NCBI RefSeq assembly: GCF_006345805.1
Contig: NC_043015.1
Coordinates: 25,730,001-25,794,000, forward strand
DNA length: 64,000 bases
Reading direction: 5' to 3'
From: Octopus sinensis
Taxonomy: Eukaryota
Shown: in pieces, positions 6,963 to 52,875 of the stretch
Layout: each line of letters opens with the position of its first letter
Numbering within the stretch: position 1 is the stretch's first letter
The notes under the pieces: model-generated
What the model was told of the DNA's origin: nothing
The model's input: only the letters and a program-made list of their open reading frames with translations
Databases searched by the model: none
Program-made: the position numbers and the translations under genes

Positions 6963-7740
6963 ATATGAAGTTCCAGAACTACTCATCAAAAAATACCAAA
7001 ATAACTTATTTACCTAAATTTTAACATCATCTCATTCGAAATAATCACTTTCCGCAGCAATACACCGGTTCTGGCTTTCTTGCCACTTTTGGAATTCGGC
7101 CTGGAATTCGTTTTCCATTTGCGAATTGAGGACCTTCTACGTTTTGCTCTTGATCTCGTCAACAGTGTTAAGACGACGAGCTTTGAGTTGCATTTTCATG
7201 TTGGGGAAGAGATGGAAGCCAGCAGGTACTAAATCTTGAGAATAATGCGGATGCGGAAGGGACACCATGTTTATTATGGCGAAAAACTCTCCAGTGAGGA
7301 AAGCGCGGTGACAGGGCACATTGTCGTCGTGAAGATTCCAGTTCTTCGGCTCCACACTTCCGGTCACTGTCGCCGAGTGTCCTCCCTCAAGCGCTTCAAA
7401 ACATCGTCGTTGATTTCCCTCCAATGTTCTTCATGTGCAAACTCATGAAGTTTCTGCATGTTTTCTCGGGTGACGTTCGTGGTAGGCTTTTCAGATCGCT
7501 CACCGTCTTCCGGGGACGATCAACTGTTTTTGATGTACCTGTGCTACTTGAAACATAGCGTACGACCCATTGCCTCATCGCTGTAAGCTTTACGAAACAT
7601 TCTCAATGTCTCTGTAGCAGACTTTCCAAGTTTAATGCAAAATCTCACGTTGGCTCTTTGTTCCTGCCCATGACAAATTCGCAGACATACAGCAGACACA
7701 AACATGATAAAATAAAAAGCAAATTTCACAACTTGCAATG
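6963..7740 (-). pseudogene. Mariner (Tc1/mariner) transposase pseudogene, internally deleted
   Basis: N-terminal HTH EQRANVRFCIKLGKSATETLRMFRKAYSDEAM; catalytic region LHDDNVPCH...LPHPHYSQDLVPAGFHLFPNMK (HDNA...YSPDLAP motif); C-terminus FQKWQESQNRCIAAESDYFE. Confidence 0.9.
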
Positions 7741-8782
7741 ACAGGGAGAGTATTCATACACTTGCATGTACGCATGCTAACGTATGTACGCCTAATAGCA
7801 AACAGCAGCGGTCAATGTGAGAGGCATTGGGGCTGGTAGAATCAATGAAATTAAGAGATGTAGTCACTGAATCACGCTACTGCAGTGAATCAGTGTAACA
7901 TCGTAAATGTAACAGCTGGAGGGAAAGATTGCTTTACAAGTATTGGTCTGGTGTTCTTTTGGCCCAAGAATATTACTACAAAGTCAAATTAGGATATTTG
8001 CTGAAGGATATAACGCCATGCCACAAGCAGATTGAGGAATAGAATCCACAACATTATCATTGTACAACGAGCCCTCTAGGGTCTGCACATTATTAGACAG
8101 TGTATGCGAAGAGAATAGAAAATCCGCAAAAATTAAGCGTTACAGGAGGCTAATATATATACGAAAATGTTATCAGATGAGACATTAACACATGCAATAA
8201 CAATGTTATAACAATTCCCGTTTCGGTGGTTTATCAAAAGTGTATTGCATGTGCGGTACTTGTTATGGATCCTTAGGTTCCGAGTTCCAATTTGCTTCAT
8301 GATAATAACGATTGCAGTTGTTTTTTCGATTTCATTGCTGAAACCGCAACACTTGAATTAGTTTCTCTTATTTTGAAGATTGACAGAATCTTTGGAACAA
8401 CGGGCAAAAGACAGGGGAGGTATTTCATCTGGGTGTTTATTTTCCAAGTTCAAATCTCGGCCGAGCTCAATTTTGCCTTTGCCACGACTAATATAGTACC
8501 AAGCCTATACTGGGGTCAATATTATCGACTGTTTTGCCTCTCTACATAAAATACGTAGCAATCTTTAAGAAAATCAATGAAGATGGTGACGACGATAGTG
8601 ATGATGATGATGGTGGTGGTGGTGGTGGTGGGGTGATCAGAAAATCAACCGCAGCAACAGCAGCAGCAGTGGTAGCAGCAGCACCATCAGCAGTGGTAGC
8701 GGCAGCAGCAGTAGCAATGGTAACGGCAGCGGCGGTAGCAGCAGCAGCAGTAGTAGTAGTAGTCATCGTCGTCGTCGTCGTC

Positions 8783-11110: not shown

Positions 11111-11317
11111 GTTTGTTTTAAAAGTAATTTGATCATAAGTATGATCTTTAGATGTGTGTGTGTTGGTGACTATCAGTTTGAGTGCATGTGTGCGTGAGTA
11201 TATGGACAAATTCGAAAGAAATTTCTTTTGGTCTGCGTTGACAACACTTGTATTTTTATTTACATTATTTACATTATTTACATTTGATGGATATTTGGCC
11301 TCATCTTATTTGTTGTT

Positions 11318-11363
11318 AACACAGCGTTTCGGCTGATATACCCTCCAGCCTTCATCAGATGTC
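11318..11363 (-). ncRNA. Minimal type I hammerhead ribozyme motif (inverted copy, cleavage triplet mutated)
   Basis: Minus strand: gacat CTGATGA a GGCTGG agggtata TCAGCC GAAACGCT gtgtt. Confidence 0.6.
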
Positions 11364-11426
11364 TTGAGGAAATGTGGTTAAGAGCGCGGATAACTAACCC
11401 CAAGATTCCGAGTTCGATTCCAGTGA

Positions 11427-11521
<95 letters not shown>

Positions 11522-11554
11522 TAGAATGAGAACCCAGGTTCGAAATTTCCCCAA

Positions 11555-11600
11555 GACACCTGATGAAGGATGGAGGGTATATCAGCCGAAACGTTGTGGA
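11555..11600 (+). ncRNA. Minimal type I hammerhead ribozyme motif
   Basis: gacac CTGATGA a GGATGG agggtata TCAGCC GAAACGTT gtg; helix III is the ACGT palindrome; one mismatch in stem II. Confidence 0.65.
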
Positions 11601-11953
11601 CAAGATGAGGACAAATATCCATCAAATGTAAATAATGTAAATAATGTAGATAATTCCTCATTTTTTAAATATTGAACAGGTATTTCCTTGTCATGTACTA
11701 CACACATATATATGTGTTCGTGTACGTGCGTGTGTAGGTCAGTGTGTAAAATATATGTATATCTATCTCTCTGTCTATCTACGTATATACACAAGTGGTC
11801 CATCCCTGCTAAGACGATTTAGCGTCTTCCATCTTCCCTTGGTGGATATCTTCTAATTTACTAATGGTATTTTAAGGCTTTTGTAATACTGTTGTATTAC
11901 GAAATCATGAGCTTACGGGTACTTCTCAAACTGATTTCATTGAAGACACTTTT

Positions 11954-11987
<34 letters not shown>

Positions 11988-11988
<1 letters not shown>

Positions 11989-12219
11989 CATCTTATAATT
12001 AAGGGCTAAAGAAGGTTATTCTAAAGCCAATACACTGATTTATCCACTTATAATCCACTTGTTACAGGAAAATTGAACTGAAAGCGGGCAACTAACCTTT
12101 AGAAAATAAAGGTTAGTTGCCCGCTTTCAGTTCAATTTTCCTGTAACAAGTGGATTATAAGTGGATAAATCAGTGTATTGGCTTAGAATAACCTTCTTTA
12201 GCCCTTAATTATAAGATGT
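11988..12219. repeat. Near-perfect fold-back hairpin (~114-bp arms, 5-nt loop) within a (TA)n-flanked element
   Basis: 11988-12101 is the reverse complement of 12107-12219 with one visible 1-nt indel; loop gaaaa. Confidence 0.95.
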
Positions 12220-12339
12220 GTATACTTCAACCGTAAAAGTTTTTTTAATATACTGCCACGCTTTTTGATGGGATCCTTTTCTGTAGAGAAAGGGACTTCA
12301 TCCTATATTGTTAGTATACATATATATATATATATATAA

Positions 12340-12543: not shown

Positions 12544-13250
12544 TAAGGAAAGATTTTTTTTTAAATGCAGAATGCTCAAATGAAAGAAAATTTTAATAAA
12601 ATGAGAAATTGATAAAATATATAAATATATATTTATTCAACCGGTTTTCGTCATTGTATGACTTGTCAAGAATATTTATGTTTTAAAAAGTTTTTTTTTA
12701 AATTAGAAAGGGGAAAAAAAGAAAATTGCATTGTTTTTTATAATTTGGGTTTTATTGAAGAATTCAAAAGAGTTGTCTCCCCTTACTCACAACACAGGAA
12801 CTGAAGAACCAGAAACACAATTACTACTACTTCCTGTCCTGCAAACATGCTGAATTAAACAACACAACACATGCTCTTAATCCCTTTGGATCTTAACACC
12901 TCAAGGTAATTTTTTCGTGAACAACCATAAAACTCAAGATACACAACGAACTCACAATGTATCGGAGAACTTATTTTTTAATTTTTGTACATTTTTATCA
13001 TTATTCTTTTACAAAAAACAATGCAATTTTTTTTTTCCCCTTTCTAATTTTTTAAAAAACTTTTTAAAACATAAATATTCTTGACAAGTCATACAATGAC
13101 GAAAACCGGTTGAATAAATATATATTTATAATTTTACAATTTCTCATTTTATTAAAATTTCTTTCATTTGAGCATTCTGCATTTTTAAAAAAATTTTTCC
13201 TTACTTATCATTTCTCCACGTGCGGTCAACACAACCCCACCATTTATTGA
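12544..13250 (+). mobile_element. (TA)n-flanked PLE-derived element with ~200-bp inverted arms
   Basis: 12544-12741 is the reverse complement of ~13008-13203; each arm has an HHR-like motif; (TA)n on both sides. Confidence 0.8.
13076..13116 (+). ncRNA. Hammerhead-like motif, U3-A8 core variant (inverted copy at 12634-12674)
   Basis: tattc TTGACAA GTCAT aca ATGAC GAAAACCGGTT gaata: 5-bp stem I, 5-bp stem II, palindromic helix III; one extra A makes the register ambiguous. Confidence 0.6.
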
Positions 13251-13252
13251 TC

Positions 13253-13301
<49 letters not shown>

Positions 13302-14250
13302 CACCCGCAGCGTAGAACTACCTGTAGAAAAATACGGATTTTCTTTCTGTGGAACCGTTTTCGATTGTAATGGCAAATACAGAAATACGGAACCGTAATC
13401 CGTTAGTTATACATGTTCGGTTGACCTGTCATGTGAACTTGCAACATTTAGCTGAGATCTGTATTTTGATTGATCGAATATTACGCGGGAGATGGATATC
13501 CGATCCAGTCACGCTGTGCGTAATACATTCTAAAACAACTAAACTGAAACATCGTTGGAGCTTATGTCTGTCTATATATTGGGTTTACAAAATCTCTATC
13601 AACAGAGAGATGAGAGCATTCCAGGAGGACGAGTGATGATATTTCTCCTGCTGTTATAACGAAACACATGTCACCAACGAAGGTGAAAGCTGAATTATTC
13701 AATCGATGGATGAATTATACAACCACCAGAAGCCGTGATGTGTGTATTTCGACCACTTTATAATTTAGGAATAAAGTTGCGGTGTTATTTAAACGTTTGT
13801 TTCTTGTATTATTTCCACGAGTTAACATGCAACACATGGTATATAATGGTATTCAAGATTCCATAGCAAAACCAAGGGTGACTTTATAACCGCACAGCTA
13901 AAGACACTTTGGTAGCTTGGTCTTACACATAAACTTAAACGCACGTCCCTACACTCAAGCAAGCACACTCACAATTTATAAATTGGTACAATAAGAATTA
14001 CTGTTTAGACCCTGCCCACGAAACCAAGTGCTGTTGAAAATACCAAATACTTAAGACATAACATGATTTCACTCTATCTAATTATCTATTTATCTGCCTG
14101 CCTGCCTTTCTGCCTGTCTGTCTGACTGTATGTCTATATACTTAGGGACGCATACATACAAATATCTACACATAGATAGATACTTATACACATACATACA
14201 TATATTCATATCTGTTTATGTGTGTGTGTGTTTGTGTGTGTGTGCATGTG

Positions 14251-14281
<31 letters not shown>

Positions 14282-14819
14282 ATTTGTGTGTATGGTTGGT
14301 TGTGTATTTATACCAATTAGAAAACAAAGAACTGGTAAGTCTAACTTCGTCATAAAAGCATGAATTGGGAGGAAACATTTTGTTTTTTGAAATACAAAGT
14401 TCAAAGTTATCTACAGAGAAGATACTTTGTCTTCCATTGTTTTCTTTTGATTAGATTCAGATTGCCGCTTATCATCACACACACGCACGCATGCACACAC
14501 ACACGCACACACACACACACATATATGGCTAGCTAGCTAGCTAGATAGATATCTGTATATATACATATATAAATGTGCCTGTATATATATATATTATATA
14601 TATATACATGTATATATATAAATAAATACATATATATGTGCGTATGTAAATACATATATGTATGTATATGTATGCATATATATATATATACAAATATACA
14701 TATAGATATACGAACATAAATTTACATATATATATATATATAAATATACATATATATATATATATATGTGGGTGTATGTGTGTGTGTGTATATATATACG
14801 TATATATACCAACAGTCAC

Positions 14820-14887
<68 letters not shown>

Positions 14888-15395
14888 TAATAATTATATT
14901 GACAACAACATGTACAGTATATATGATTACAATGTTGATTCGCAATAGTAATATATTTGGAAACTTAAGTAGGGAAAAAACAACAAATACAATGCTATTA
15001 AGGAAGGAGAGGTGACAAGAGAGAGAGAGAGAGAGAGAGAAGAAGAAGGGAAGGAGAGAGAGACAGACAGAGAAAGAGAGGGGGGAGGGAGGGAGGAAAA
15101 GTGACAGAGAACTCATACACCACCTTGTTGCTATCTCGCCCGAGTCGAAAATTTAATTCTGAAGTGAAGCTATGCAATCGCAGCAGACAGTCACTATATA
15201 CGACTAAATTAACGTGGATTGTGTTTGCATAAAAGATATTTAAACTAGCTTATGATGTCTGATGCGGCAGTTGTATGCACGTGTGTGCTTATGTGTAGGT
15301 CTACACACATACATATATGCATACATACACAAACACACACACACATATATATATATATATCTGTGTGTATGAATGTGTGCGGAAATGTGTGTATA

Positions 15396-15436
<41 letters not shown>

Positions 15437-15501
15437 TATATATATGTATATTATATATATATATATATATTATATATATATATATATAAAATAATAATGT
15501 T

Positions 15502-15582
<81 letters not shown>

Positions 15583-15731
15583 AGTATATATATGTATATA
15601 TATACTTCAGCAAAAGTTTAGATTCAAATGAATATGGTACTTAATTTAGTTGCACCAGAATTTTGTATGGTGTATCCATAAAAATCCGTGGGGTGATTAT
15701 AATCAAAATAAGCAACAACAATGACTCCGGT

Positions 15732-15822
15732 AATTTGGTACAATCGTTTCGTACTACATCATTTTATTAAATGTTGTAAGTATTACAAGAGATTTAAAAT
15801 GCCGAGTACTCATCAGCCAATT
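15732..15822 (-). ncRNA. Type I hammerhead ribozyme motif with long loop II
   Basis: Minus strand: aattgg CTGATGA GTAC...GTAC GAAACGATTGTA ccaaatt. Confidence 0.75.
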
Positions 15823-16175
15823 ATAGAGGTTTTCCATTAATACAAAAATTTTCATATCAAGTGGCAACATTATAGAGAAGGTAGATATATAGACAAAGAT
15901 GTGGATTTAAATTTTAAGAACATTTGAGGTAGTGGAGCCTATCAACTGACTGACTAAGATTTGGTTGATCCAAACTATTGTAAGAATATGAGAGGGAAGA
16001 ATAAGTTGAAGGAGACAATAAAGATTTTCTAATTATAGAAATGGGGTAATGGGGTTTCAGAGCTCCATATAAGGAATTTATGTGGAAGACAGCATTGTCA
16101 CTACTAAATGCCAATTACTACTATTTGATGAACAGATTCAGCGTTAGGAGAACTAGGTCAATGTCAAGTGGTCAC

Positions 16176-16266
16176 AATTGGCTGATGAGTACTCGGCATT
16201 TTAAATCTGTTGTAATATTTATAACATTTAATAAAATGATGTTGTACGAAAAGATCGTACCAAATT
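16176..16266 (+). ncRNA. Type I hammerhead ribozyme motif (one helix III substitution)
   Basis: aattgg CTGATGA GTAC...GTAC GAAAAGATCGTA ccaaatt; the copy at 44827 shows the intact GAAACGATCGTA. Confidence 0.7.
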
Positions 16267-17506
16267 ACCGGAGTCATTCTTGTTGTTTTTTTTGAGTATA
16301 TATATAATGCGAGCACATGTGTGCATATTAATTCATGCATGTGCTCATATGATTGTACACACTTCTACATAAACACGCACACACACATATACATACACAA
16401 GTATATGTGTGGGTGCGTGTGTGTATGTATGTATGTGTGTACGTGTGTGTGTCGTTATTGGAATGAAATCACACAACATACTATATTTCTTATCGTACAT
16501 AATCTCAAGCTTATTTCCCACCTGTCTCTAAGGAATAATATACATTTCGATCTCATTGCAATATTTTTGAACAATCTTGGTTAAAATATTGCCGTTGCCT
16601 TCAAATTGCTATCAAGAATATTCATATTATTATCCAAGGACCATTTCTTACATGCCGACGTTAATGGCCCCTATCAAAGTGGTAACACGGAAGGATTCTT
16701 AAAAAAGCAAGAAAGCCTGTACTTTTCATAGCAAATTTCATTTGGATTAAAAAGTATAAATATACTCCTTTCAAAGTGAGTAGTCGTTTAATGTTTACAA
16801 ATATCGCCAACGTTACAGTTAGTTTAATCATTTTCTCATTTTCAACGCCGTGCGTACGAGATTCTCTGATATGTCTGCAGAGTTTTATCATGATCAATTT
16901 CTAATCGATAAATATTTGGTAAGAAAGTCTTCGACTTCTTGAAATATTTTGGATTCTTAACTACATTTAAGAAACTAGTCAACTTTTGTTAATTTCCTTT
17001 AAATTTGGTGTCTCATTATGCATCATATGAAAATTTAGAATAAATCAACATATTATCCCCGTATATCAATGATTTAATTAAACGTTAATAAAATACTAAT
17101 CCTTAATTGTCCTGAAATTCAACGTAGAAAGCGATCTGTAACATGTTATAATCCCCTATATTATTTACAAGTAATAACATTCGTAGCTTAAGGATATTTG
17201 AAATTCCCTTTTAATCGTTACCCCTAGGTACAAGCAGTAACTTTTGTGACAAAATGATGCAAAACGAAATTTATCAGCATAATCACCCTTTTAAAATTAA
17301 GGCATAAATGGAAACACATTGTTGACCGAATATATTTGGTATTTAAACCAGGCAGACATATTACTGGATATAAAATGGAATACCCTATATTTTGTAAAAT
17401 CATACTCTGTAGGTAATAAATACAGGCGAACTTTATGTCTCTGAAACCTTTATAAATCTGTTTTCCCATACTCTACTTAATAAATACTCTACTTAATAAA
17501 TACATA

Positions 17507-17769
17507 GGATCGCGGTTTGGATTCCCAGACCGAGTGTTGTGTGTGTTTATTGAGCGAAAACACCTAAAGCTCCACGAGGCTCTGGCAGGGGGTGGTGGCG
17601 ATCCTTGCTGTACTCTTTCGCCACAACTTTCTCTCACTCTTTCTTCTGTTGGCCTGCTCGCTTAGCCTGCGGGGTGGCGTCATTTAAAGGCTAAAACCAT
17701 GCAAAGTGCATTGTGACCAGCGATGTATAGCAACATCTGATAGCCTGGTCGGTCACGGTGATCACGGTA
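17507..17769 (+). mobile_element. SINE, 5'-truncated
   Basis: Degenerate B-box-like start; the 3' ~120 bp are nearly identical to 60638-60760. Confidence 0.7.
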
Positions 17770-17982
17770 ATATATATATATATATATATATATATATTCC
17801 ACATTAAGACCCCCAGTTCATTTGCTTTTATCACGGGCTATATGTAATGTGTATTTTCTCACATGGTCTAAATATCATTATAATATCATAATCTAAATTT
17901 GTTTGTTTACTTCCTTTCTATTTCACACAAACCACGTATCACAGATGGTTGTTGTTGCAAGATATACTCACTTTGAACTTGC

Positions 17983-18062
<80 letters not shown>

Positions 18063-20832
18063 GTGTGTGTGTGGATACAGGTATTACTGTAAATTTAATA
18101 TATCCCTATATGGAAATTATGCGACATGATGCAATCTAGCTTATTACGTTACAGAATTTTTTTAAAACTCGTATTCCTTTACGAAGTTATTGAAGTAATG
18201 ATTTAGCCCAGCTTATCTATCTCACCTTTTATATCAATCAAAACTATCATTTATTCAACAAAAGAAATTCCTGCTTCAACAATATATCCGCCGAAACAAT
18301 CTTCAAGAAAGGAAAGGAAACAGGGCAGTGGGTTGGCAGAATCATTAGAGTGGTATTTCTTTCAACTTGTTACGTACAGAGTTCATATCCTGTTCGAGTC
18401 AGTGTTTCTTTTCATTATTTTGGGTTCGAGAAAATAAAGTGACAATAGATTTCTTGGATCAGTGATACCAACTAACGCCGAACACTGAAGTTCTAGATCT
18501 TGTTCTCATACAAAATGTTGTTTTGTTTGATTGAACAGGCCCATCATAAAAGAAGCTGCTGCAAACGTCAAACATATCTTAAGGGTATTTATGATTTTTT
18601 TAAATGTGAAGTGTTGTTCCTTAGTAGATGCTGATAAAAATTTTCAGCTATTTCCAGTAAGTCGAGCAACCACTTTGGTTTATCCTTAGACATTCTTATT
18701 TCTAGATGTGAACAATAATTTTCAAACTAGAGTTGGATCAAGTCATAAATAATTGCGGAAGTCTTATAATGCCTAAATATGAACATCAACAGAGCCATAG
18801 ATGTGTATACAAAAGTGGGAGGCTTAGTTTGTTCCACCCACCCAACTTCCGATGATGTAATAGAGATGGTTTCATAATATACCCCACACAAGTCTTCTCC
18901 ATCCGAATGGCAGGTTGTATGCCAGAGTTGCTGGAGGCCGTACATTTGCAGAATAGTGAGAGCGTTGGAAGAAATGCCAAACGGGATTTGGTTAGTTCAG
19001 TTCTCTACATTCTGAATTAAAATCCGACAGATGGAAAATTTATTATTCATCTTAATCAGAACCAATAAAAGCAGAATCAATCAAATGTTGGAATCGATTC
19101 AATCTAGTACATCCATTCGAAATATCAAGTCTCGTGCTTATGTCAGAAAGTAATGTTAATTCCCAAATTATTCAAAGAATTTCTTCCACAACTTTGTATG
19201 ATATTTAAGCATTATTTTTCTGATCGGAATTTGCTTCAAAAACTCTGAAGTAAGCTGCCGTGATTTGGTGGCACCTTAACTCTGCAATGCTGAGAGTAGA
19301 TTTGGATTATTAGTCAGCGAATAGTTGGGGAGCGATGCACTCCATCGAAGAAGTTGCAAAGGAGGCCACTTGATGGCAAGGGATAAAAACGGCAGATCAG
19401 TGGCTCGATGGGTTAAATGGACAAGATGGTCTGATATTTGAAAGATTTAAAACCCTTGAAGACCCCAGAAACATTATCGATAACGGATGTTAGGGAATTC
19501 GTGCTTTGCATTTAGGGAACTACAATCCGAAATGTCATTGTTATGAAGCGAACTTATTTACCGTTCATTCATTCATTCACATTATATATGGCCGTACTAA
19601 AATCCCTGAAAATAAGAGTAATGCGTAGGCATACACACACGTATATGTCTGTGTATGCGTGTGTGTATGTGTGTGTATACATACAGATAGATAGATAGAT
19701 ATGTGTGCGTGTTATATAAGTAGGTGCACGTGCGTAAGTGTATGAATGTAATCATATACGTACGTATTTATAAGAAATTATAAATTACCATATGAATGTA
19801 TTTGTGTTTGTATCCCTTATATGTTTTTGTTTGTCCCAGCGTGTGTTAGAGTACACGAATACATATAAGTATGTATGTGTGCATATGTGTGTACATGTGT
19901 GTGCGTGTGCTTCCAAGCGTGCATACGTTACGCTGACGGTAACAGAAATCAAAAGAAAGAACATGATAGAGTAATAACTGTTGACAAAAAGACATGAGAC
20001 AGCAGTTAATTTAATTCTTTGAGAGATGTTATTTAATCGAAGAGTATCTGAATGGTAAACGCTGGTTCAGCAACATCGTTACGGTTGACTGGTGAACGCT
20101 TTCGCAGTTTCTGTTTTTAGACCTCACTACATAAGTAACTCCAATCTGTAATTAAACGTTCTCACAACGTAAAATGTTCAAGAACATTGGGCGTAACATA
20201 TGAGAGGTCAGTCATTGTTAAAAGGCATTTGGCCAGAGCCGAACCTGAAGCAAGAGAGCAGAAGCGGCAACAACAACAAATGTAGCTGGAGTTAGCGCTA
20301 TAGTGATGTCTATTATATTATCTGACCAAACACGAAGATAGATGAACAACTGCAGTAGTCAGGATAGCTGCAGCTACAACAACAGCAGCAAGGGTATCTA
20401 TTATTTCATTTAAACAAAAGCGAAACTGGAAGCCACGGAAGCAGCAGCAGCATCACTTGCAGTCGTGTCTGTTGTATCATTTTGAAGTCTTCTCCTTCAA
20501 GTGTTGCTCACCAAAAAGAACGTTTTACGCGAAGTAAATTGTTATTGGCTTTCTCGATCGTTCGCTAACAAACGTTCAGCGAAGCAGCACCGATAATATG
20601 CTTGCAAATAGGTACAAGGGTATGTCTGTACGAGTGTATGCGAGTGTGTGTATGCCTCCACGCATACATAGGCATGCACACACACACACACACACACACA
20701 CACCCAAACAAATTTATAAACATATATAAACACACGGATTCATATGTGCACTTCCAAAAACGCACACATACATATATGTAAATTACTGCGTATATGCATA
20801 TGCATATTTGCATGTATGTATATGTATATATA

Positions 20833-20880
<48 letters not shown>

Positions 20881-21461
20881 TATGTATGTGTATATATATA
20901 TATATATATATATGTAATACATATATATACACACACACATAAATATATATATATATGTATGTATGAATGTATATGTCCACACACGTAAATCCGTATATGT
21001 GTGAACGCATTCACACAAAATTTGGCATAGACATAGAAACACGTATACTACATACGTACGCGTGTATATTACATGTGTCTGTTGCATGTGCGTAAGTGCG
21101 TATGTAATCCCGAACTTGCGCTTGAACGTGTATGCGCGCTCGTGCATGTGTGTGTGCATGTATGTGTGCGTGTGTGTGTGCATGTGTGTGCCTGTATGTT
21201 TCGCCATCTAATTGCTCGATGGTGGAGAAGTGGTTCTCTAGTGATATGATATAAATTTTTCTCACTTGAATAGCTATTTTCATTTCCCCTTAGCAACAAC
21301 TAAAGCAGCGCATTGAGCTTAGCTACGACACTCACTAAATTTCCTCAAGTTTAGATTCGTGCTAAAGACATCACTTGGAAATTACATACCATGTAAATCA
21401 CTCGAATAATAATAACAACAACAACAACAACGATAATGATAATAATATAATAATAATAATA

Positions 21462-21499
<38 letters not shown>

Positions 21500-21938
21500 G
21501 TAATAATAATAAAAGTAATAATGATAATAGAAACTACAATGGCGGTAATAAGAGTAATGTTAATAACAAAGGGTTTATGAAACATTTTGTCTCATAACTG
21601 TAATCATCGATTATAGATTGGTGCTGTCGAGCGTGAGCTGTTATTGGTTACGATGAGACAGTCACGTGTGTGTGTGTGTGTGTGTGTGCGTTTTGTCGTT
21701 GTGATATATCTTACCTATAAAAGCAGCTTCAATGTGTTTGACAGAGAATAAACAGATTACGATGTTATGTGCTGGTCTTGGTGTTAGTGATGGAGAAGAA
21801 AGAATGTAGACAAACGTACATAAAAGTGTGCGCACGTACACATAGACACACACATACACACATACATATCTATGTATATGAGTAAATAGATACATGCATA
21901 CATATACATATATATATACGTGTGTTTGTGCATGCGCG

Positions 21939-22022
<84 letters not shown>

Positions 22023-22980
22023 CACACATACATATATGCACACGCACATGTATATATAAGTGATAGACATGAAGATGCGTTCACAATCTCTCGTGCACTC
22101 GCATATGCACACACACACGCACACATACAGACACAGACACGTATGCATGTGTGTACATATGTATGTCTATTAAAATGCAAGCACATACGCACAAACAATA
22201 GAGCGCGCTCACTATATATGCCACATGTACAGTAAGACTTGTGCATACATCCACAGATGGACCTCGAAGGCTTTATTGATGACCACATTTACATACACAA
22301 TACTAACACCAAAGATTCACCGGTGATACTTGTCACAGTTGGTGTTTTCTTATTTTTTCGCTCTCAGCACAATAAATATACCTATCCGATCCTATTTACG
22401 CTAATTCAGGCATCTTATGATGGTAAAGATTACAGTTCAAAGCCGTTTCACTGTTATTTATAATTGATGGGATTTATATCAGTTCGCTGAAAAATTTGCT
22501 GAAATCCTATACTGGGATCAAACGATCATTTGCGGCAATATTATAAGCAAATTTTTATGAAACCGGATGTAACTTTCAACACTATTGTGTAGGCATTTCC
22601 CTCCGGTTAATATGTGTGTGTACATACATGCACGCACACGCACTCACATATATACATATATGTTTATGTATACATGCATGTATATCTATCTATCTAGCTA
22701 TATATCCCTTTCTCTCTCTCCATATATATATACCCACATACGTACAAGTATAAATATATGTGTACACACACACGCATGCACAAACACACACACACATGAC
22801 CACTTGCTTTCAGCTTTCTTTCCACTGCGCATAATGTAGGTGAATTGAATTTCAAAGGAGCCTTTACTCGACCAATTACACTTTTAGCGTAATTTGGATG
22901 ATGGAGCATCTATAGAAGCTCTGGGTATATAAGGTATATAAGGGAGGGGGTCTTTTTCCATTAAATATATATATATATAA

Positions 22981-23312
22981 GGGGTAAAGACCACCCCCCT
23001 TTTAGTCATGAATGACTATGGGATTGCACCTAGAAAGTTACCCTCTAAGGTACAGGGCTGGGCAAGGTTGTTTTGGGGACGTCAGCAATAGGCCATGCAT
23101 ACCAACCTCTCCTCTCCACCTCACCGATGTTATCCAAGGGAAAGGCAAAGGGGCTGATACAGCTTGGCACCAGGGACATCAAAACGCATTTCTACACCTG
23201 AGTGAACTGGAGCAACGTGAAATAAAGTGTCTTGCTCAAGAACACAACACACAGTCCGGTCTGTGAATCGAACTCTCTACCTCATGATTTCAGACCGACG
23301 CTCTAACCACTA
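22981..23312 (-). mobile_element. tRNA-derived SINE
   Basis: Minus strand begins tagtggttagagcgtc...gagttcgattc (A/B boxes); homologous along its length to 48448-48780. Confidence 0.85.
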
Positions 23313-23616
23313 AATTATATATATATATATATATATCGTAGCACAAGCTGCGTTCATGAAGGGGAGTTCACTCCCTAACCTAATGAGTTAGGAGTTGAGT
23401 AACATTATGTGTGTTGTGAATACAGCAGGCCTGACTGTAGTACAATACGTTACAATAAAAACACCGACCAAAACAATTGTAGGAATAAAAGATAACTCGT
23501 ACATCTGTTTCACAATATATGTGCACACACACAGATATATGCGTATATACATACATATATATATATATTATACGGGAAGCTTTATGAAAATAGACAAAAG
23601 ACGAAGGCAGGTGGAA

Positions 23617-23661
<45 letters not shown>

Positions 23662-23669
23662 TATATGCG

Positions 23670-23709
<40 letters not shown>

Positions 23710-23746
23710 ATATAATATATATATATGCGTATATATATATAATATA

Positions 23747-23792
<46 letters not shown>

Positions 23793-23831
23793 TGTATATA
23801 TACATAATCTATATAATATATATATATGTAT

Positions 23832-24180
23832 GACTCAAAAGAGATACCCGAAGAATAGGATATCTGACTCGCTAGAAAGAGCAGTTAAAACTCCAAGCCA
23901 CCGAGGTTTCTGCAGAAACCTTGCAGGGTCTAGGATTAAGGTAAAAGCTTTTATTTTTCAATCACTTTCGGAATTACAACAATTGGTGGCTTGGAGTTTT
24001 AACTGCTCTTTCTAGCGAGTCAGATATCCTATTCTTCGGGTATCTCTTTTGTGTTTGAACGTACACTGTATTCTTCTCTGAATAATGTATAGTCTATTGA
24101 CTAATTTCTTCTTTCTCACTAGACCACTGGTAACTAAGAATTTTTCTATGAATATTCTTGCTACCCTAAGATTTTAATTA
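23832..24180. mobile_element. (TA)n-flanked element with a perfect 67-bp inverted repeat
   Basis: 23836-23902 is the reverse complement of 23985-24051; terminus similar to the 37413 and 60777 elements. Confidence 0.75.
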
Positions 24181-24188
24181 TATATATG

Positions 24189-24390
24189 TAGGGAGAGTTT
24201 ATGAAAAAAACAAACGACGAAGACAGGTGGTGTACAAAACAAACATATGTATTAGTATAACTCTCAAGAATAGAAAAAGTCTTTTATGTTTCGAGCCTAC
24301 GCTCTTCTACAGAAAGGGACACAAAAAAAAAAAAAACAAGGAGAGAAAAAAATGTGTGTAGTGGCTAACGATCTATCATGGCATCTAACT
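24189..24390 (-). mobile_element. PLE-derived element with degenerate HHR at 24281-24316
   Basis: Minus strand: cttt CTGTAGA a GAGC gtag GCTC GAAACATA aaag; related sequence at 23570-23620 and 25153-25405. Confidence 0.6.
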
Positions 24391-24419
24391 CGAACAGACG
24401 GGTCACCCACGAGGAGGAA

Positions 24420-25020
24420 AGTAGGGGAGATAACAAAGTAAAGATAACCCCCAACACGAAGGTGCGTGTGTATAAGAGAGTATGTATGTGCGTGTGAAAG
24501 AGGGGTGATGGTCTGGACGTGTGCGTGTATGTATGTGTAGGTGTGGAAATGTGGGGATGGGTGTATGGATGGTGTGTTGTGATGTGATGTGTAATGTTGG
24601 GAGGTGGGGAGGCGAGAGTAGGGAAAGCACGGGTGGGGTGTGGGTTCGGCTGAGGGTTGGCGTTAGTGGGTAGACAGAGGGTGGGGTAGAGGTGGGGTAT
24701 GTTGGGGAGGGTGTGTGGGATAGGATAGGGGGATGGGATAGGGGGATGGGAAGGATAGGGAAGGTGGAGTAGGAATGTGTAGGGGTGGGTGGGCGTATGG
24801 TAGAGGGGAAGGTGGGTATGTGAGGAGAGACAAGAGGAGAGAAGAGAGAAAGAGAGTAAGAGAGAAGATAGAAAGAGAGAAGAGAGAAAGATAGTAAGAG
24901 GGAAGAGGGAAAGAGGGGAGAGAAAGAGAGAAAGAGAGTAAGAGAGAAGAGGGAAAGAGAGTAGGAGTGAAGAGAAGTAGGAGTGAAGAAAAGTAGGTGT
25001 TGGGGCAAGGGAGGAGAGTT
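24420..25020 (+). repeat. G-rich then GA-rich low-complexity tract
   Basis: Dense GGG/GGGG runs at ~24540-24820, then an almost pure purine tract. Confidence 0.85.
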
Positions 25021-25118
25021 GGTACATATATAAATACATATATATACATATATGTATGTTTTGTTTTACTAAAAGTTTCAATAATATGTGTGTGTGTACA
25101 CACACACACACACACAAC

Positions 25119-25149
<31 letters not shown>

Positions 25150-25152
25150 CAC

Positions 25153-25405
25153 ATAGTTGAAATTTATAGAAAATCAAAAGACGAAGACAGGTGTATGAAC
25201 AACAAGCAGGTATATTAGTTTACGTTTCGAGCCTATGCTCTTTAACAGAGTGGAATAAGAGAAAATAAACAGAGATGACCGCAAAATCTACTATAGGCTC
25301 GAAACGTAAAATACTTTTTTCATTTTCCCAAGCGTCAAACTAATACAACTGCTTGTTGTTCATACAGCTGCCTTTGTCTTTTGTTTTTCTGTAAATTTAA
25401 ACTAT
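25153..25405. mobile_element. Inverted-repeat element with HHR 3' halves (GGCTCGAAACGTA) on both strands
   Basis: 25153-25236 is the reverse complement of 25293-25405 apart from an internal deletion; same family as 24189-24390. Confidence 0.7.
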
Positions 25406-25591
25406 ATATTATACGCGCACGTGGTCAGTCCAATTTTATCCTGTCTTAACTCTCTACTCATTGATATTGCACATCAACCACTTCCCGAGCATTCTGAACC
25501 TCTCCTCATCTACATGCCAGCACTCCACCCGGATTACCAATGGATATACTGACTCTACTTTCGCGGACTTCATTGGGTTTTTTCGTTGATA

Positions 25592-25678
<87 letters not shown>

Positions 25679-26227
25679 TATATATATATATATAATACAG
25701 CAATTAAATACAGGCATATACATAAACCTGATGAGTATATTTGATGGAATTAGAAAATACATAAATAAAAGATGCCAAATACAGAAATGGAGTTTTGTAA
25801 TAGGCTTACCTTGATAGTTGTTTAGAATGAACAATGGCTTATATATTATTAATTAACCACGTTTATTGTATAATAAAAATCCACAGTGCCTCTTCCTACA
25901 GCCATGCATCTCCCCTTATTGATGTCGGACCATGTATTGAAACGAACCGATGCAGAGATATGAAACGTCCAGTTTGTCTTCATCAACAGGGTTCTCCACA
26001 ATACAACTCAACCTAGGGTGATCAGGGAACCTGAGGTGGCCGGCGCGAAAGGAACCAGCTTAGCCCCCACCCTGTAAATGTCCATATCCTTCTCCTCTTT
26101 CTAGGGGTTCAGCACCACCAAAATAAATTGGACGCCATCCAGGCCAACTTGATCTCGGACGGGCTGGTGCGCCGACCTCACCTGCACCGCCTGGCATGTT
26201 TTCGTTAAGCCTCCCAGCCTCACAGTT

Positions 26228-26473
26228 GTGGCTCGCTCAACGCAGAGCCATCATTCTTTACATCATTCGCCATTCTCTGACAGGTCTTGTGATCTGCCTA
26301 TGGTAGTGGAGACCCTCCGGCGTTCTTGGCCCAAACTACAACCCTGCCCACTGCTATCTGGTGAAAGATGGTTTTCCGCAACTGCCAACCCCGTATGTCA
26401 GACTGGTTGTTCCAGTGCATCTCCCTTGCCATACACCAGGGCAACACCTTCACGTCGGTCACGATGCTACTAA
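26228..26473 (+). mobile_element. CRE-like RLE non-LTR retrotransposon C-terminal remnant
   Basis: Frameshifted DLPMVVETL... and DWLFQCISLAIHQGN resemble PxAVETLG and WLFQRISLAIQRGNA. Confidence 0.5.
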
Positions 26474-26961
26474 TCATCTCTTCTCGGTTAGTAACAAGTT
26501 ATCCTTCTAATCTGTTTCTTCATATTGCCAAACCTTTAGTAAGCACTACAGATTCTGATCTAATCGCTCATTTCATGGAGATCCAACACCGGCTTCTATT
26601 GATTGCTCCCGTCAACTGCCGCTTAACTAGTTCATTAATCCGGTCCCTGTAAGGACGCGCTCAACTTGCAATCACTGGATCCCTGTATACAGGTTCTAAC
26701 TAAATTGGTTGAGCAGATCCAAATCCAACCAAAGACACCTCTCAGAAAATTTTCAAACTCTTCTGCGATCGGACTTCTACGAGTTTTCTTGTTAAGACAT
26801 ATTATATAGATCACAGTTTGTGTGTGTATGTAATCTGATCCTTGAAGCCTAGTGGTAGAACAAGAACGGGTGAAACGGGCCGCACCTATCCCGACGGAGG
26901 CGGCCGTATATCGCAGCTATTGCGACGCGACGAGTGCACGGTCCCAAGTGGGCCACTTTTG

Positions 26962-27172
26962 GTAAACAGATTGGTGCAAGGGTGAAGGTAGAACACCTAC
27001 AAAATCAGCATTGCTTGGAACTACGAGAATCCTTCGCAGAGGTGTTGAAGTATGACCAGAAAACAAGTGTCATCTTAGCCTGATAGCTGTGGACAGCTGA
27101 CACCATCATATTCAGCAAAGTAAGCAGAGGGTTTTCATTAAATACTACTACTAATAATAATAATAATAACAA
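26962..27172 (+). mobile_element. R4/Dong-like LINE 3' end with (AAT)n tail
   Basis: EHLQ / KSALLGTTRILRR resembles LQKSALLGTARILRRVL; followed by a short UTR and (AAT)n. Confidence 0.7.
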
Positions 27173-27401
27173 TTACTTTTATTGATCCTAATAAACATTA
27201 TGATGACGATGATACTAGCATTCAATGCTCAAATCTAATGCGCAAATTGTAAAATAAAGTATGGGAATATATGTTAAGATTCATATATTGATATATGTGT
27301 GTGAGCGTTTATATTACGTACACTTGTATGTGTGTGTGTCTGTATGTGTATGGCTTTGCCCGCGCGCGCGTATGTTGATATATGTATATATATATATATA
27401 T

Positions 27402-27723
27402 AGGGAGATGTACTCGCATAGCAAGTGATTTGAGCTGAGATCGTGTGCTGGAACGAAAACAATTGCAGCGTGGAAGGTGCCTGTAAGCCATTTAAGAAAC
27501 ACACAAAAGCCGTTCGATTCACTTCAACATTAAGTTTAATCCGCGACCTGTTCACTGACAAAAATCCGTGCTGCACGGATTTTTGTCAGTGAACAGGTCG
27601 CGGATTTTAGCGAATTTTAGCGACGAAAATATTTTGAAAAATTAAACTTAAATGTTGAAGTGAATCGAACGGCTTTTGTGTGTTTCGTAAATGGCTTACA
27701 AACACCTTCCACGCTGCAATTGT
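27402..27723 (+). mobile_element. (TA)n-flanked element with nested inverted repeats
   Basis: Outer arms ~27459-27540 and ~27640-27723; inner perfect hairpin ~27538-27606 with a 1-nt loop. Confidence 0.85.
27581..27640 (+). ncRNA. Hammerhead motif, G3-C8 core variant
   Basis: ttttgtca GTGAACA g GTCGC...GCGAC GAAAATATTT tgaaaa: 5-bp stem II, AATATT palindromic helix III, stem I with one mismatch. Confidence 0.65.
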
Positions 27724-27805
<82 letters not shown>

Positions 27806-27870
27806 CATAGATGCATACATACATTATATATACATACATGTATATATATATATGTATATATATATATCTA

Positions 27871-27910
<40 letters not shown>

Positions 27911-27980
27911 TATATATATATATATACATAAATATATATATATAATATATATATATTATATATATATACATACACACACA

Positions 27981-28053
<73 letters not shown>

Positions 28054-28477
28054 GTATGTATATGTATTTGTACATAACTGTACATTACAAAAGTCACTGA
28101 AAAGTCATTCATTCCAAAGTCCAAGGGCAGTAAATGCGAATAATCATGCCCCTCATACAAAGACATGTATTACATTATACACACACACACACAGACACAC
28201 ACGCTCATACATACATACATACATACATACATACATACACATACATACATACATACATACATACATACATACGTACATACATACGTATCTGCGAACAATT
28301 TTACAGATGAAGAAGCGAAAATAAAAGTAAAACTAAATACAAATAAAATATTATATAATTAGCCAATAATTAATTATAAGCATTTATATTACGTACATCG
28401 ATAGGAAAAGAGAGAACAACGGACAGAAGAACAGACAGAGAGAGAGAAGGAGAGAGAGAGAAGGAGAGAGAGAGAAG

Positions 28478-34794: not shown

Positions 34795-35373
34795 TTTACT
34801 TGTTTCAGTTTCATTCACGTGACTGCAGCCATGCTGGATCACCGCCTTCAAGAGTTTTTCAGTTGAAACCGCCCCCACCATGAATTATTCCTTTGTAAGC
34901 CTAGTACTTATTCTATCTTTTGACGAACCACTTGATTACGGAGACTTAAACTCGCCAACATCAGTTGTAAAGCGATACGGTGGATGGGGAGACAAACACA
35001 GACAGAAATATATATATATATATTTAATGTACGATAAAATTTTTTCGAAAAAAATTTTTATCAATGGCCAGCATATTAAAAAATATCATAAATAACTTAT
35101 AAATAAAGGCAACCGAAAAAATTTCTAATGCCAAATATGCCGAAAATTGGACATATTGTCCATTACCATATAAGTTTTCACAATACGCACGCTATTCGAA
35201 AAAAAAGTCGACAGAAATTTCTAAAAAATTCCATTAATGGAATTTTAGAAATTTCTGTCGGCTTTTTTTCGAGTAGCGTGCGTATTGTGAAAAATTATAT
35301 GGTAATGGACAATATGTCCAATTTTCGGCATATTTGGCATTATAAATCTTTTCGTTTGCCCTTATTAATAAGT

Positions 35374-35409
<36 letters not shown>

Positions 35410-37732: not shown

Positions 37733-37787
<55 letters not shown>

Positions 37788-37854
37788 TTTTTTTTCAGAA
37801 TGAGATTTAAAAAAAACAAGGCTGTGAAGATTTTAGAACATTTACAGATAGAAG

Positions 37855-37902
37855 GTCTTACAGCTGTTTCCAGGATATTGATCATATCCCTTCATCGGAG
37901 AC
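37855..37902 (-). ncRNA. Hammerhead motif, U4C variant
   Basis: Minus strand: gtct CCGATGA a GGGATAT gatca ATATCCT g GAAACAGCTGTA agac. Confidence 0.7.
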
Positions 37903-38232
37903 GGTGTGAGAAAATGGTTAATTAGATAAGATATGAAATAGAGAGTTAAGTGAAGGAATGAAAATAGACGTGAGATATGCAGGGATATTGCATTTGTAGA
38001 TCCATTATTTAAGCAGAATGGTATATATATAAGATTCCAATACCTTGTGAGTAAACTCCAATAGTATTTTACTCAAAAAGTATTAGAATCTTATATGTAT
38101 ACCATTCTGCCTAAATAATGGATCTACAAATACATTATTCCTGCATATCTCACATATATTTCCATTCCTCCACTTCACTCTCTATTTCATATCTTATCTA
38201 AATTAATTATTGCTTAAGCATCTTCTCACACT

Positions 38233-38281
38233 GTCTCCGATGAAGGGATATGATCAATATCCTGGAAACAGCTGTAAAGCC
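38233..38281 (+). ncRNA. Hammerhead motif, U4C variant (second arm, stem I 3' strand altered)
   Basis: gtct CCGATGA agggatatgatcaatatcctg GAAACAGCTGTA aagcc. Confidence 0.65.
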
Positions 38282-40145
38282 TTCTATTTATAAATGTTCT
38301 AAAATCTTCACAGCCTTGGTTTTTTTTCATCTCATTCTGATAAAAAGTTTTTTTTATATATACTGATATATGACCTACGTTGGACTCCTTATTCGCATAA
38401 TCACCGAACCTGGAGCTTAACTATAATCTATCCGTAGCACTTACTCAGCAATTTTTGGCACCTTTGGGTTTTATTGACACCATTACCTCTCGTAACCTCC
38501 TATATATATATATATTCTATCCATACTTTCTAAAGGACACTTAGCAGGACATTAATATTTCCAGAACCATTATCAATCACTATAATCAATATTGTACCTT
38601 GTAGTAGCCAAATACACCAACAGGCATTGGCTTTGACAGTTCCTAGATTTGCAACAAACGAACCAATAATATTAGACACATGAGATACTACACTTGTCCC
38701 ATAAACGCCTTATAGATGCCATTCGAAGCCATGGGGTGTTTTGTTGACTTACGCAATGTGCTTCAATGATTTAATCTTATAGATGAGATCCTTTCATACA
38801 AACATTCGAATGCTTTGTAAGGCCTACATTAATGTTGTGCATTACTTCCATTTCATGAAAGACTCAAAATTCATGATATTGCTCTCAAATTCCAGCCTTC
38901 TCAAATCACTCTCAGTCTTGGCTTTCTTCTTTTGCTTTTACAACTTCAATGGCTTCAGATTCCCTCATCTCTTCGCCAGCTTTTATCACCCATATCGCGT
39001 ACACTCCACGCCTTTCTATTAAACACCTCATCTGAATTTTTCTGTCAAGACTGGCCTTCAAATGGAATTTTCACACTGTTCAATTTTTTCCAGGTGTCAC
39101 ATTGCAGCTGTTCGAGAGAGTTACGTACAAGGTAGACCACATTATTTCGGAGAGGCCAATCAATGCCATGGATACGGTTTGTCCTCTTTCTTAACACCAA
39201 AACATATGATCAGGTTTCCTCAACTAAACATTATCTGGGTGCCCATGAAATGTATATTATTGTGCGAATTCATTCAATACTTAAAGTTAAAAAAGAAAAA
39301 ATCTCTTTGAGACTCCTTCCATTGACAGGACACCAATCGGCTTCATCTCCTCAACCCCTGGTTAGGGCTTGTAACCATCTCAACTGAGTGGATTGAAGCA
39401 ACATAAAATTAGATGTATTGCTGGAGGATACAGCTTACCACCCTGTTCAGGAATCGAAGCAACGCCCTTATAACCTGAAGCCCATGACCGTAACATCTAG
39501 CCTGCTGAGTGATATTCATTTCTAACACTGACACAACTACACATATTTAATGTGTGGAATATAGTCAGTTTTTCACTGGTATTTTATTTTATGAACCTCT
39601 GAAAGCTAAAAGGCCAAGCTAAACTTTAGCAGAGTTTGAAAGCAGAATGCAAAGAGTCATAATTACGTAGGGCAAGGCGAGACAGTTTTGTTGGAGATTG
39701 TAATGATTCTGCCAGCCCAGTATTTGCTTGATAGTGTTTCTATTTCAACTTTATTACATCTGAGCTTCATTGTTGTCTCTGTCACATGTTGGTCTAATTA
39801 GTCGTTCTATGTGAGTCAACCTATAAATATCAAACATTTGTCGTCCATTAATGTGGAGTCGGCAATTACTTCGTCACAATGATTACGCAATCCATCACAG
39901 AGCGAATTAATTGCTCGTAGGGGAAATTAATTTCGTTAATCCTCTATTAGAATACATAATATAAGAATACATCATTCATTAATCCTCTATAAGAACAATT
40001 AATCGTATACATATTTAAATCACGCTCTGTTGATGTAGTAGAATGCTTAATTACTGACACAAGTGAGCGTGTTTGAGTGTGTGTGTGTGCGTGTAATTTA
40101 GTAGGTACAAACATACATAATCGCATATATATGTGCATATTTTAC

Positions 40146-40176
<31 letters not shown>

Positions 40177-40404
40177 CATATATGCATACACTCAGATATA
40201 TTACACATATATATATATATATATACACATATATACATACATACATATATATATATATACTACATGATGAATTTATTCGTAAAATTCTTCCCGGCATGCC
40301 CGCGTAAATTTTGCGTCTGCGCAGAGATTTGAAAAGTTAAGATCTGCTAGTAGTCGGGTTTAACGTATAGCCCCACATCGCTGCAGACCTCGATTAAATT
40401 CAGG

Positions 40405-40482
40405 CAACTCGCTGATGAAGCTGGCCTTAGCAAACATATTCTGTGTTTTGCTAGAAAGAAGCAGAAACCGCGGTACGAGTTG
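40405..40482 (+). ncRNA. Type I hammerhead ribozyme, copy 1 (predicted cut after 40475)
   Basis: caactcg CTGATGA aGCT...TAGCAAAC..GTTTTGCTA...AGCa GAAACCGCGGTA cgagttg: perfect 7-bp stem I, ACCGCGGT palindrome, GUA triplet. Confidence 0.85.
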
Positions 40483-40849
40483 TTAAAGTTATCGGTAAAC
40501 GTTTTTGATTTTCACTCTCGATAAATTCATCCCCTTTTTGTGTTCCCAGCACTCGGCATCTTTATTTAGGAGCCCTTAATTGTATAACTACATGAATAAT
40601 ATTTTTCTATATGAATAATATTTTTGTCTTATGACTAATTCGTCTTTTGTGCTGGGCACCTGGTAGTAAATAATATTACTACCCTTCTTGTTTATATTCG
40701 CATACTACATGATGAATTTATTCGTAAAATTCTTCCCGGCATGCCCGCGTAAATTTTGCGTCTGCGCAGAGATTTGAAAAGTTAAGATCTGCTAGTAGTC
40801 GGGTTTAACGTATAGCCCCACATCGCTGCAGACCTCGATTAAATTCAGG

Positions 40850-40927
40850 CAACTCGCTGATGAAGCTGGCCTTAGCAAACATATTCTGTGTTTTGCTAGA
40901 AAGAAGCAGAAACCGCGGTACGAGTTG
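40850..40927 (+). ncRNA. Type I hammerhead ribozyme, copy 2 (predicted cut after 40920)
   Basis: Same sequence as 40405-40482. Confidence 0.85.
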
Positions 40928-41023
40928 TTAAAGTTATCGGTAAACGTTTTTGATTTTCACTCTCGATAAATTCATCCCCTTTTTGTGTTCCCAGCACTCG
41001 GCATCTTTATTTAGGAGCCCTTA

Positions 41024-41065
<42 letters not shown>

Positions 41066-44679: not shown

Positions 44680-44971
44680 AATGTAACCACATGTGAACCG
44701 TTGGCAATTTTCTTCCTCTTTTTCTATTCGACTTTCCTCTGTTTCTGAAGAAAAGTTCTGCTCGAAACGTTAAGACATTTTACAACTGTTGTAATACTTA
44801 CAATATTTAATAAAATGATGTAGTACGAAACGATCGTACCAAATTACCGGAGTCATTCTTGTTCCTTATTTTGATTCTAATCACCCCACGGAATTTTATG
44901 GATAACATCATACAGAATTCTGGTGCATCTAAATTAAGTGCCATATTCATTTGAATCTAAATTTTTGCTAA

Positions 44972-44972
<1 letters not shown>
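44680..44972 (+). mobile_element. Two abutting HHR-element fragments
   Basis: 44741-44776 gttt CTGAAGA aaagttctgctc GAAACGTT aagac (degenerate); 44785-44972 matches the reverse complement of ~15607-15790, with GTACGAAACGATCGTAccaaatt at 44823-44845. Confidence 0.7.
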
Positions 44973-52775: not shown

Positions 52776-52875
52776 NNNNNNNNNNNNNNNNNNNNNNNNN
52801 NNNNNNNNNNNNNNNNNNNNNNNNNNNNNNNNNNNNNNNNNNNNNNNNNNNNNNNNNNNNNNNNNNNNNNNNNNN
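52776..52875. other. Assembly gap (100 N)
   Basis: Run of N. Confidence 1.

Follow-up and report, generated by a model that had tools for sequence, protein, structure and literature searches.

Can the tertiary base pair between positions 3 and 8 of a hammerhead ribozyme occur in nature in the reversed orientation, as G3-C8? This question is raised by a 64,000-nucleotide (nt) stretch of Octopus sinensis DNA (contig NC_043015.1, positions 25,730,001 to 25,794,000; hereafter the window, to which all coordinates refer), in which the segment 27582-27641 resembles a minimal type I hammerhead with G3 and C8. Support for the 3-8 tertiary pair comes from a classic laboratory rescue, the C3G/G8C exchange. 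A natural, fixed, high-copy G3-C8 family, if real, would be evolution's version of this experiment. We estimate a probability of about 0.7 that this segment is a copy of an abundant repeat of about 150 bases in which G3-C8 is fixed, which likely represents a Penelope-like terminal repeat, and the RNA of which would slowly cut itself when paired. We favor this reading because no match with a Watson-Crick core and the full hammerhead anatomy appeared in 2034 shuffled windows, and G3 and C8 are fixed in the repeat family; because the variants within the motif keep or restore pairing, and the C3G/G8C exchange partly rescues a Penelope hammerhead; and because five outward-reading inverted elements, together with fold-back joints in sequencing data, fit the description of Penelope-like elements.

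The G3-C8 repeat likely is a natural self-cutting variant of the hammerhead that so far has been in print only as a laboratory mutant. The U3-A8 core, also present in the window, is already known and adds little; the G3-C8 core, fixed in an abundant repeat, would be new as a natural state. A broader claim, to which we give slightly less than even odds, is that a retroelement family of tens of thousands of copies in four labeled animal taxa carries an active reversed G3-C8 hammerhead that surveys and animal-genome censuses have missed. If true, such a family would put to the test the selection for cleavage in Penelope hammerheads, and its thousands of copies in several related taxa would provide material for tracing a double change across inactive intermediates. 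Here and below, PMC11167929, PMC4209133, PMC3088659, PMC8557442 and bioRxiv 10.64898/2026.07.22.740005 are cited for those parts of their text on which we draw.

Anatomy of the G3-C8 motif

The sequence GTGAACA, reported at 27589-27595 in an earlier sequence-only reading of the window, is indeed present, and so are the 5-bp helix II, the GAAA and the palindrome that were said to follow it; these elements do not, however, directly adjoin the core, from which they are separated by an extra G (Table 1). The motif fits the minimal type I core at U4, G5, A6, N7, A9, G12, A13, A14, A15.1-U16.1 and H17, with helix II closed by G10.1-C11.1 after the one extra base that follows A9. The same core letters are found in the repeat family, with no variant at the 3% level. 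The literal C3 and G8 are absent from both motif and family, which makes this core a variant; the G and C that take their place can form a Watson-Crick pair in the window copy and, at the same 3% level, family-wide.

The window copy differs from the family in two respects. Its helix I consists of 3 bp, a mismatch and another 3 bp, and would comprise 7 bp with the family C at 27638; its loop II contains a 10-nt tandem duplication (27603-27619), and the family loop is shorter. Because of the mismatch, the longer loop, a competing hairpin (see below) and the lack of a partner on the same strand, the window copy is probably crippled, and as an inverted copy with a broken helix I it is probably inert.

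To what extent could such a motif arise by chance? As the null model, 2034 block-wise dinucleotide shuffles of the window were used. The combination on which the sequence-only reading relied (paired core, 5-bp helix II and GAAA) is present at the sites in question but is close to chance, at 0.22 Watson-Crick and 0.56 non-Watson-Crick matches per shuffled window; with the palindrome added, these values drop to 0.034 and 0.077, respectively. A strict descriptor was therefore considered that combines these terms with G10.1-C11.1, a palindromic A15.1 to U16.1 segment, H17 and at least 3 pairs in helix I; it was composed after the motifs had been seen, and its terms match the published consensus. 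Across the 2034 shuffles, this full anatomy yielded no Watson-Crick-core match and one non-Watson-Crick match (a smaller run gave 1 in 150). In the real window, only the motif at 27589 passes, joined by the U3-A8 motifs at 13081 and 12669 if one extra A is tolerated. Thus, the full minimal-hammerhead anatomy at 27589 is not a chance product.

Table 1. Positions in the window of the hammerhead-like motifs, their parts and the inverted elements that carry them
Feature	Position	Strand	Remarks
G3-C8 minimal type I hammerhead motif	27582..27641	+	anatomy, family letters
Helix I of G3-C8 motif	27582-27588 with 27635-27641	+	G-A mismatch 27585/27638 in window copy
Core of G3-C8 motif	27589-27595	+	
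Extra G between A9 and helix II	27596	+	
Helix II of G3-C8 motif	27597-27601 with 27620-27624	+	5 bp
GAAA of G3-C8 motif	27625-27628	+	
Palindromic helix III of G3-C8 motif	27628-27633	+	6 nt, AAUAUU
U17 of G3-C8 motif	27634	+	predicted cut 3' of U17
Right arm of inverted element	27572..27723	+	spans approximately one high-copy repeat unit; then (TA)n 27723-28067
Left arm of inverted element	27459..27576	-	core kept (27549-27555), 38 nt missing, no complete motif
56-nt stretch from left arm to (TA)n 27378-27402	27403..27458	-	possible one-sided tail or host flank
U3-A8 minimal hammerhead-like motif	13076..13116	+	right arm
Helix I of U3-A8 motif	13076-13080 with 13112-13116	+	5 bp
Core of U3-A8 motif	13081-13087	+	
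Helix II of U3-A8 motif	13088-13092 with 13096-13100	+	5 bp
Palindrome of U3-A8 motif	13105-13110	+	preceded by GAAA and one extra A
U17 of U3-A8 motif	13111	+	
Identical U3-A8 motif, left arm	12634..12674	-	U3 at 12669
Inverted element with both U3-A8 copies	12546..13252		arms about 12546-12743 (-) and 13009-13202 (+)
Inverted pair, for comparison	11256..11653		C3-G8 cores 11358 (-) and 11560 (+); both show defects private to the copy
Inverted element, for comparison	15606..16300		C3-G8 cores 15816 (-) and 16182 (+); longer left arm is family sequence also found at 44776-44972

The repeat family in sequencing runs

The family was surveyed in contigs from 4 of 24 listed sequencing runs (X1, X2, X7 and X8), each with a different organism label, which were aligned to 27571-27722 with a likeness cut-off of 80% and a variant reporting limit of 3%. 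Between 1979 and 8445 contigs per run were placed on this segment. Depth summed over 27589-27594 reached 887,000 in X1, 1,008,000 in X2, 79,000 in X7 and 179,000 in X8; depth itself is no copy number, and division by the depth per listed contig (about 4-61) gives an abundance of roughly 10^4 copies (8,000-45,000). In none of the four runs does an alternative letter at 27589 or 27594 attain 3% of the depth. For the G3-C8 motif, the consensus check proposed along with the sequence-only reading comes out in its favor: in all four runs, the family has G3 and C8, which are not private mutations of the window copy.

The variant table has 11 rows, 8 of them downstream of the motif (three sites at 25-57%) and 3 within it, and all three variant sites in the motif keep or restore pairing. 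At 27638, A is replaced by C at 96-99.5% of the depth, and because this C pairs with G27585, helix I of the family is a perfect 7-bp helix; A>G at 27637 (6-12%) and C>T at 27621 (0.6-3.5%) each yield a G-U pair. A possible compensatory change at 27586/27637, seen in a single X8 loose-end consensus and absent from the variant table, was not counted.

A 4-nt deletion at 27615 accounts for 2-4% of the depth. In all four runs, consensuses of the loose ends 5' of 27619 connect the GTGAACAG core with the 3' half via a shorter loop II (41-68 contigs per run, agreement 0.63-0.72, median length 12-14 nt); in X2, X7 and X8, individual contigs span the two halves with about 9-12 letters of gap. Upstream of the core, the flanks become heterogeneous after about 20 nt, and at the other end they do so at 27720-27721, hence a repeat unit of about 150 nt. 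Joints between opposite strands at 27573, together with joints that lead from 27722 back to 27619, were found in three of the four runs and indicate further fold-back copies as well as some copies arranged head to tail.

A Penelope-like layout and a possible mechanism

In the window, the G3-C8 motif occupies one arm of an inverted element, the other arm of which has lost the 3' strand of helix II, GAAA, helix III and the cut site. Altogether, five inverted elements with outward-reading motifs were identified, with cores at 11358/11560, 12669/13081, 15816/16182, 27555/27589 and 37898/38237. The elements at 12546-13252 and 27403-27723 are flanked by (TA)n, and one arm of each is about 50 nt longer. 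A one-sided extension is demonstrably family sequence only in the 15606-16300 element, which shares it with 44776-44972. Penelope-like elements are known for inverted 5'-truncated copies, one-sided tails and a bias toward (TA)n or microsatellite targets (PMC8557442), and Penelope minimal hammerheads for opposite-strand pairs 100-700 bp apart (PMC4209133). An inverted 5'-truncated copy, partial tandems, a one-sided tail and (TA)n targets are all found here, which points to the terminal repeat of a Penelope-like element as the likely origin of the G3-C8 repeat. Because no Penelope protein was found, this assignment draws on the layout and the type of motif.

Monomers of minimal hammerheads are inactive and dimers weakly active. 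In head-to-tail transcripts of a master element, two G3-C8 motifs could pair via the AAUAUU palindrome and thus form helix III; G3 would pair with C8 in place of C3 with G8, and the RNA would be cut 3' of U17 (27634), probably slowly and possibly aided by the protein of the element. A G3-C8 hammerhead has been stated, as data not shown, to perform better with G17 than with C17 (PMC3884650); U rather than C at position 17 would avoid a strong G3-C17 trap, although this fit is weak.

Weighing the alternatives

Several observations weigh against the reading of the repeat as a self-cutting family of Penelope-like origin, and some of them are compatible with other explanations. At -15.5 kcal/mol, the most stable fold predicted for the window copy is a competing hairpin, in which the 5' strand of helix I pairs with the last part of helix II and with GAAA, which is thereby buried; the hammerhead fold is at -0.9 kcal/mol, both values being for the window copy rather than for the family form, and the duplex of the AAUAUU palindrome is worth only -0.2 kcal/mol. 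Rfam covariance models run on the G3-C8 and U3-A8 motifs reported no hammerhead up to an E value of 10. In PAc, the single reconstituted Penelope element, insertion in vitro does not need hammerhead cleavage (PMC11167929), which calls selection for cleavage in Penelope hammerheads into question, and the deficit of variants within the G3-C8 motif is not significant (0 of 42 motif sites against 3 of 81 flank sites at 20% or more; p = 0.55, also 0.71). The sequence-only reading took the double change as a sign of selection for catalysis, and neither result bears this out. A motif that derives from a hammerhead yet has no useful cutting rate, its fold being kept for protein binding or RNA folding or simply hitchhiking with a master copy, would be compatible with these findings, as well as with the only partial activity of the double mutant, the absence of RNA ends mapped to the cut site of PAc (PMC11167929), the weak cleavage of minimal hammerheads and the fixation of G3-C8, which a single master copy could explain. 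We nevertheless regard this explanation as unlikely, given that the family has kept the rest of the core as well as the palindrome and the two helices, and that drift would rarely yield exactly two transversions that restore the 3-8 pair.

The remaining points concern the extent of the family and its ancestry. The depth of the 3' half exceeds that of the core by a factor of about 3 in X1 and X2 and of 7-8 in X7 and X8, so many copies lack the core region or have diverged there; this step is compatible with 5' truncation but may also reflect a sibling subfamily with another 5' half. Moreover, contigs lose rare variants, and the difference in loop II splits alignments near 27603-27619. G3-C8 might thus be a recent swap confined to one subfamily, with a larger sibling that carries C3-G8 or another 5' half remaining unaligned, and the modest agreement and short lengths of the loose ends leave room for this. 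We consider this scenario rather unlikely: a contig with two changed letters should still clear the 80% cut-off, no such letters are listed at the 3% level, 5' truncation would also explain the depth step, and even so the subfamily would remain very abundant. The Penelope affinity, in turn, is weakened by the absence of a Penelope reverse transcriptase or GIY-YIG domain among the 175 open reading frames (ORFs) of the window in a Pfam search, although 5'-truncated stubs would lack both; a GIY-YIG end suggested by eye in the spacer of the U3-A8 element gave no protein match, even when read through with X, and was dropped as unsupported. An unrelated short element, such as a short interspersed nuclear element or a miniature inverted-repeat transposable element, with an end that resembles a hammerhead by chance, would accord with this absence, with the short unit and the heterogeneous flanks close upstream of the core, with the commonness of the weaker versions of the pattern, and with a descriptor composed after the fact. 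A degenerate G3-C8 pattern (core plus helix II) also matched 109 prokaryotic loci and 1 viral locus, and the 3 of these 110 that passed a loose helix test (palindrome and three helix I pairs; one with G17) were treated as chance. However, no paired-core full anatomy appeared in the shuffles, chance does not predict the improved fit of the family, with its 7-bp helix I and short loop II, and the outward orientation of the G3-C8 motif is the same as in the nearby C3-G8 motifs; this explanation is very improbable.

The U3-A8 motif

The sequence-only reading also described TTGACAA at 13081-13087, with the same core in the opposite arm, and both cores were recovered (that in the left arm at 12669 on the minus strand). 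The 5-bp Watson-Crick helix II, GAAA and the palindrome are present as well, but with a one-base flaw in register: GAAA, the palindrome, H17 and helix I of the motif at 13081 fall in line only with an extra A after GAAA or, alternatively, if position 17 is G and a C ahead of U3 is left unpaired. The two arms belong to one inverted duplication, with 54 identical nt around the motif, and therefore count once. The element has a spacer of about 265 nt, a 50-nt one-sided extension (13203-13252) and (TA)n on both sides. A search for the U3-A8 pattern gave 3 matches in metagenomes, none with both the palindrome and helix I, and no matches in genome and viral contigs. The two U3-A8 motifs probably represent a single insertion, decayed or atypical, of a different family whose core variant was already known.

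Other motifs and repeats in the window

Most of the hammerhead-like motifs in the window are of the CTGANGA type, as the sequence-only reading maintained: seven C3-G8 cores lie in a recognizable hammerhead context (11358-, 11560+, 15816-, 16182+, 40412+, 40857+ and 44745+). None of the seven passes the strict descriptor, and copy-private defects are visible in the four that form two aligned pairs (11358/11560 and 15816/16182). In each of the two head-to-tail units of about 445 bp at 40257-41058, a C3-G8 core is combined with a helix I of 7 bp, a palindrome of 8 nt and a helix II that is long; the units are retrozyme-like, and a dimer would be possible in principle. Within 44745-44972, a minimal C3-G8 motif adjoins, a few bases past the predicted cut, a 5'-truncated copy of the 15816/16182 family, possibly a nested insertion. 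The inverted element at 37783-38352 carries a hammerhead-like motif in each arm (cores at 38237, plus strand, and 37898, minus strand), in which position 4 of the core is C (CCGAUGA), helix III is palindromic over 8 nt and position 17 is A. With it, the window contains a third core variant, absent from the sequence-only reading, and a decayed third copy of this type lies near 52924-52960 on the minus strand.

The non-coding DNA of the window is rich in microsatellites, with a GC content of 29-43%. An Rfam scan of the whole window found no family at the gathering score, the C3-G8 motifs included, and when ranked by E value, microRNA matches driven by microsatellites were among the matches listed (150 of 605). 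The Pfam search of the ORFs returned only a mariner remnant (HTH_48, 7547-7753, E value 5e-5) and one weak unrelated match. Broken frames that by eye resemble reverse transcriptase remnants of long interspersed nuclear elements, without a Pfam match, occur at 1268-2196, 47200-48330 and 54500-55800, and a 100-N assembly gap at 52776-52875. The microsatellite-rich composition, these frames and the mariner remnant point to an animal genome. Other long fold-backs, at 11984-12224, 23833-24054, 35083-35384, 60909-61229 and 62694-62809, contain no motif that passes the hammerhead descriptors.

Comparison with known hammerheads

Natural covariation to U3-A8, to which the sequence-only reading pointed, has been published, together with an insertion within the GAAA region that is tolerated (U13a; Perreault et al. 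2011, PMC3088659), and U3-A8 Penelope minimal hammerheads account for about 1,300 matches in Schistosoma mansoni and also occur in Saccoglossus, with one published example carrying G17 (PMC4209133, Fig. S3). The variant section of Perreault et al., figures aside, describes U3-A8 and names no natural G3-C8. In the hammerhead literature searched, to which the survey of Lunse et al. 2017 and figures did not belong, G3-C8 was found only as engineered cases (PMC11167929, PMC3884650), and the exact motif of the family has no match in genome and viral contigs. Covariation between families holds in the sense that paired letters at 3 and 8 appear in separate cores; the families cannot be aligned outside the motif, so the change itself is not traced. 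The expectation that searches confined to CUGANGA would miss such variants is borne out: published descriptors, which require CUGANGA or at most allow U3-A8 besides, would miss the G3-C8 family, for which Rfam, too, gave no hammerhead match.

The G3-C8 motif resembles the metazoan Penelope minimal type I hammerheads (PMC4209133) in its short helix I, the extra base between 9 and 10.1, G10.1-C11.1, the palindromic 15.1-16.1 segment, the NUH site and the opposite-strand pairs. It differs from them in that none of the 56 rows of Fig. S3 in that work has a G3-C8 core, that the extra base is G against H in the consensus (one published row has G), and that no Penelope ORF is linked to it here. Non-LTR (long terminal repeat) retrozymes are likewise short non-coding repeats with type I hammerheads, for which an origin from Penelope terminal repeats has been proposed (bioRxiv 10.64898/2026.07.22.740005); they form head-to-tail tandem units, whereas the copies in the window are inverted pairs and tandem joints were seen in few contigs only. 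A functional parallel is PAc, a Penelope hammerhead the cleavage of which requires protein and in which C3G and G8C each abolish cleavage (PMC11167929). The double change restores it in part, so the claim that swaps of the 3-8 pair retain activity holds, but only to this partial extent. The swapped pair is the same in both systems: a rescue mutant made in the laboratory there, and the natural state of a high-copy family here.

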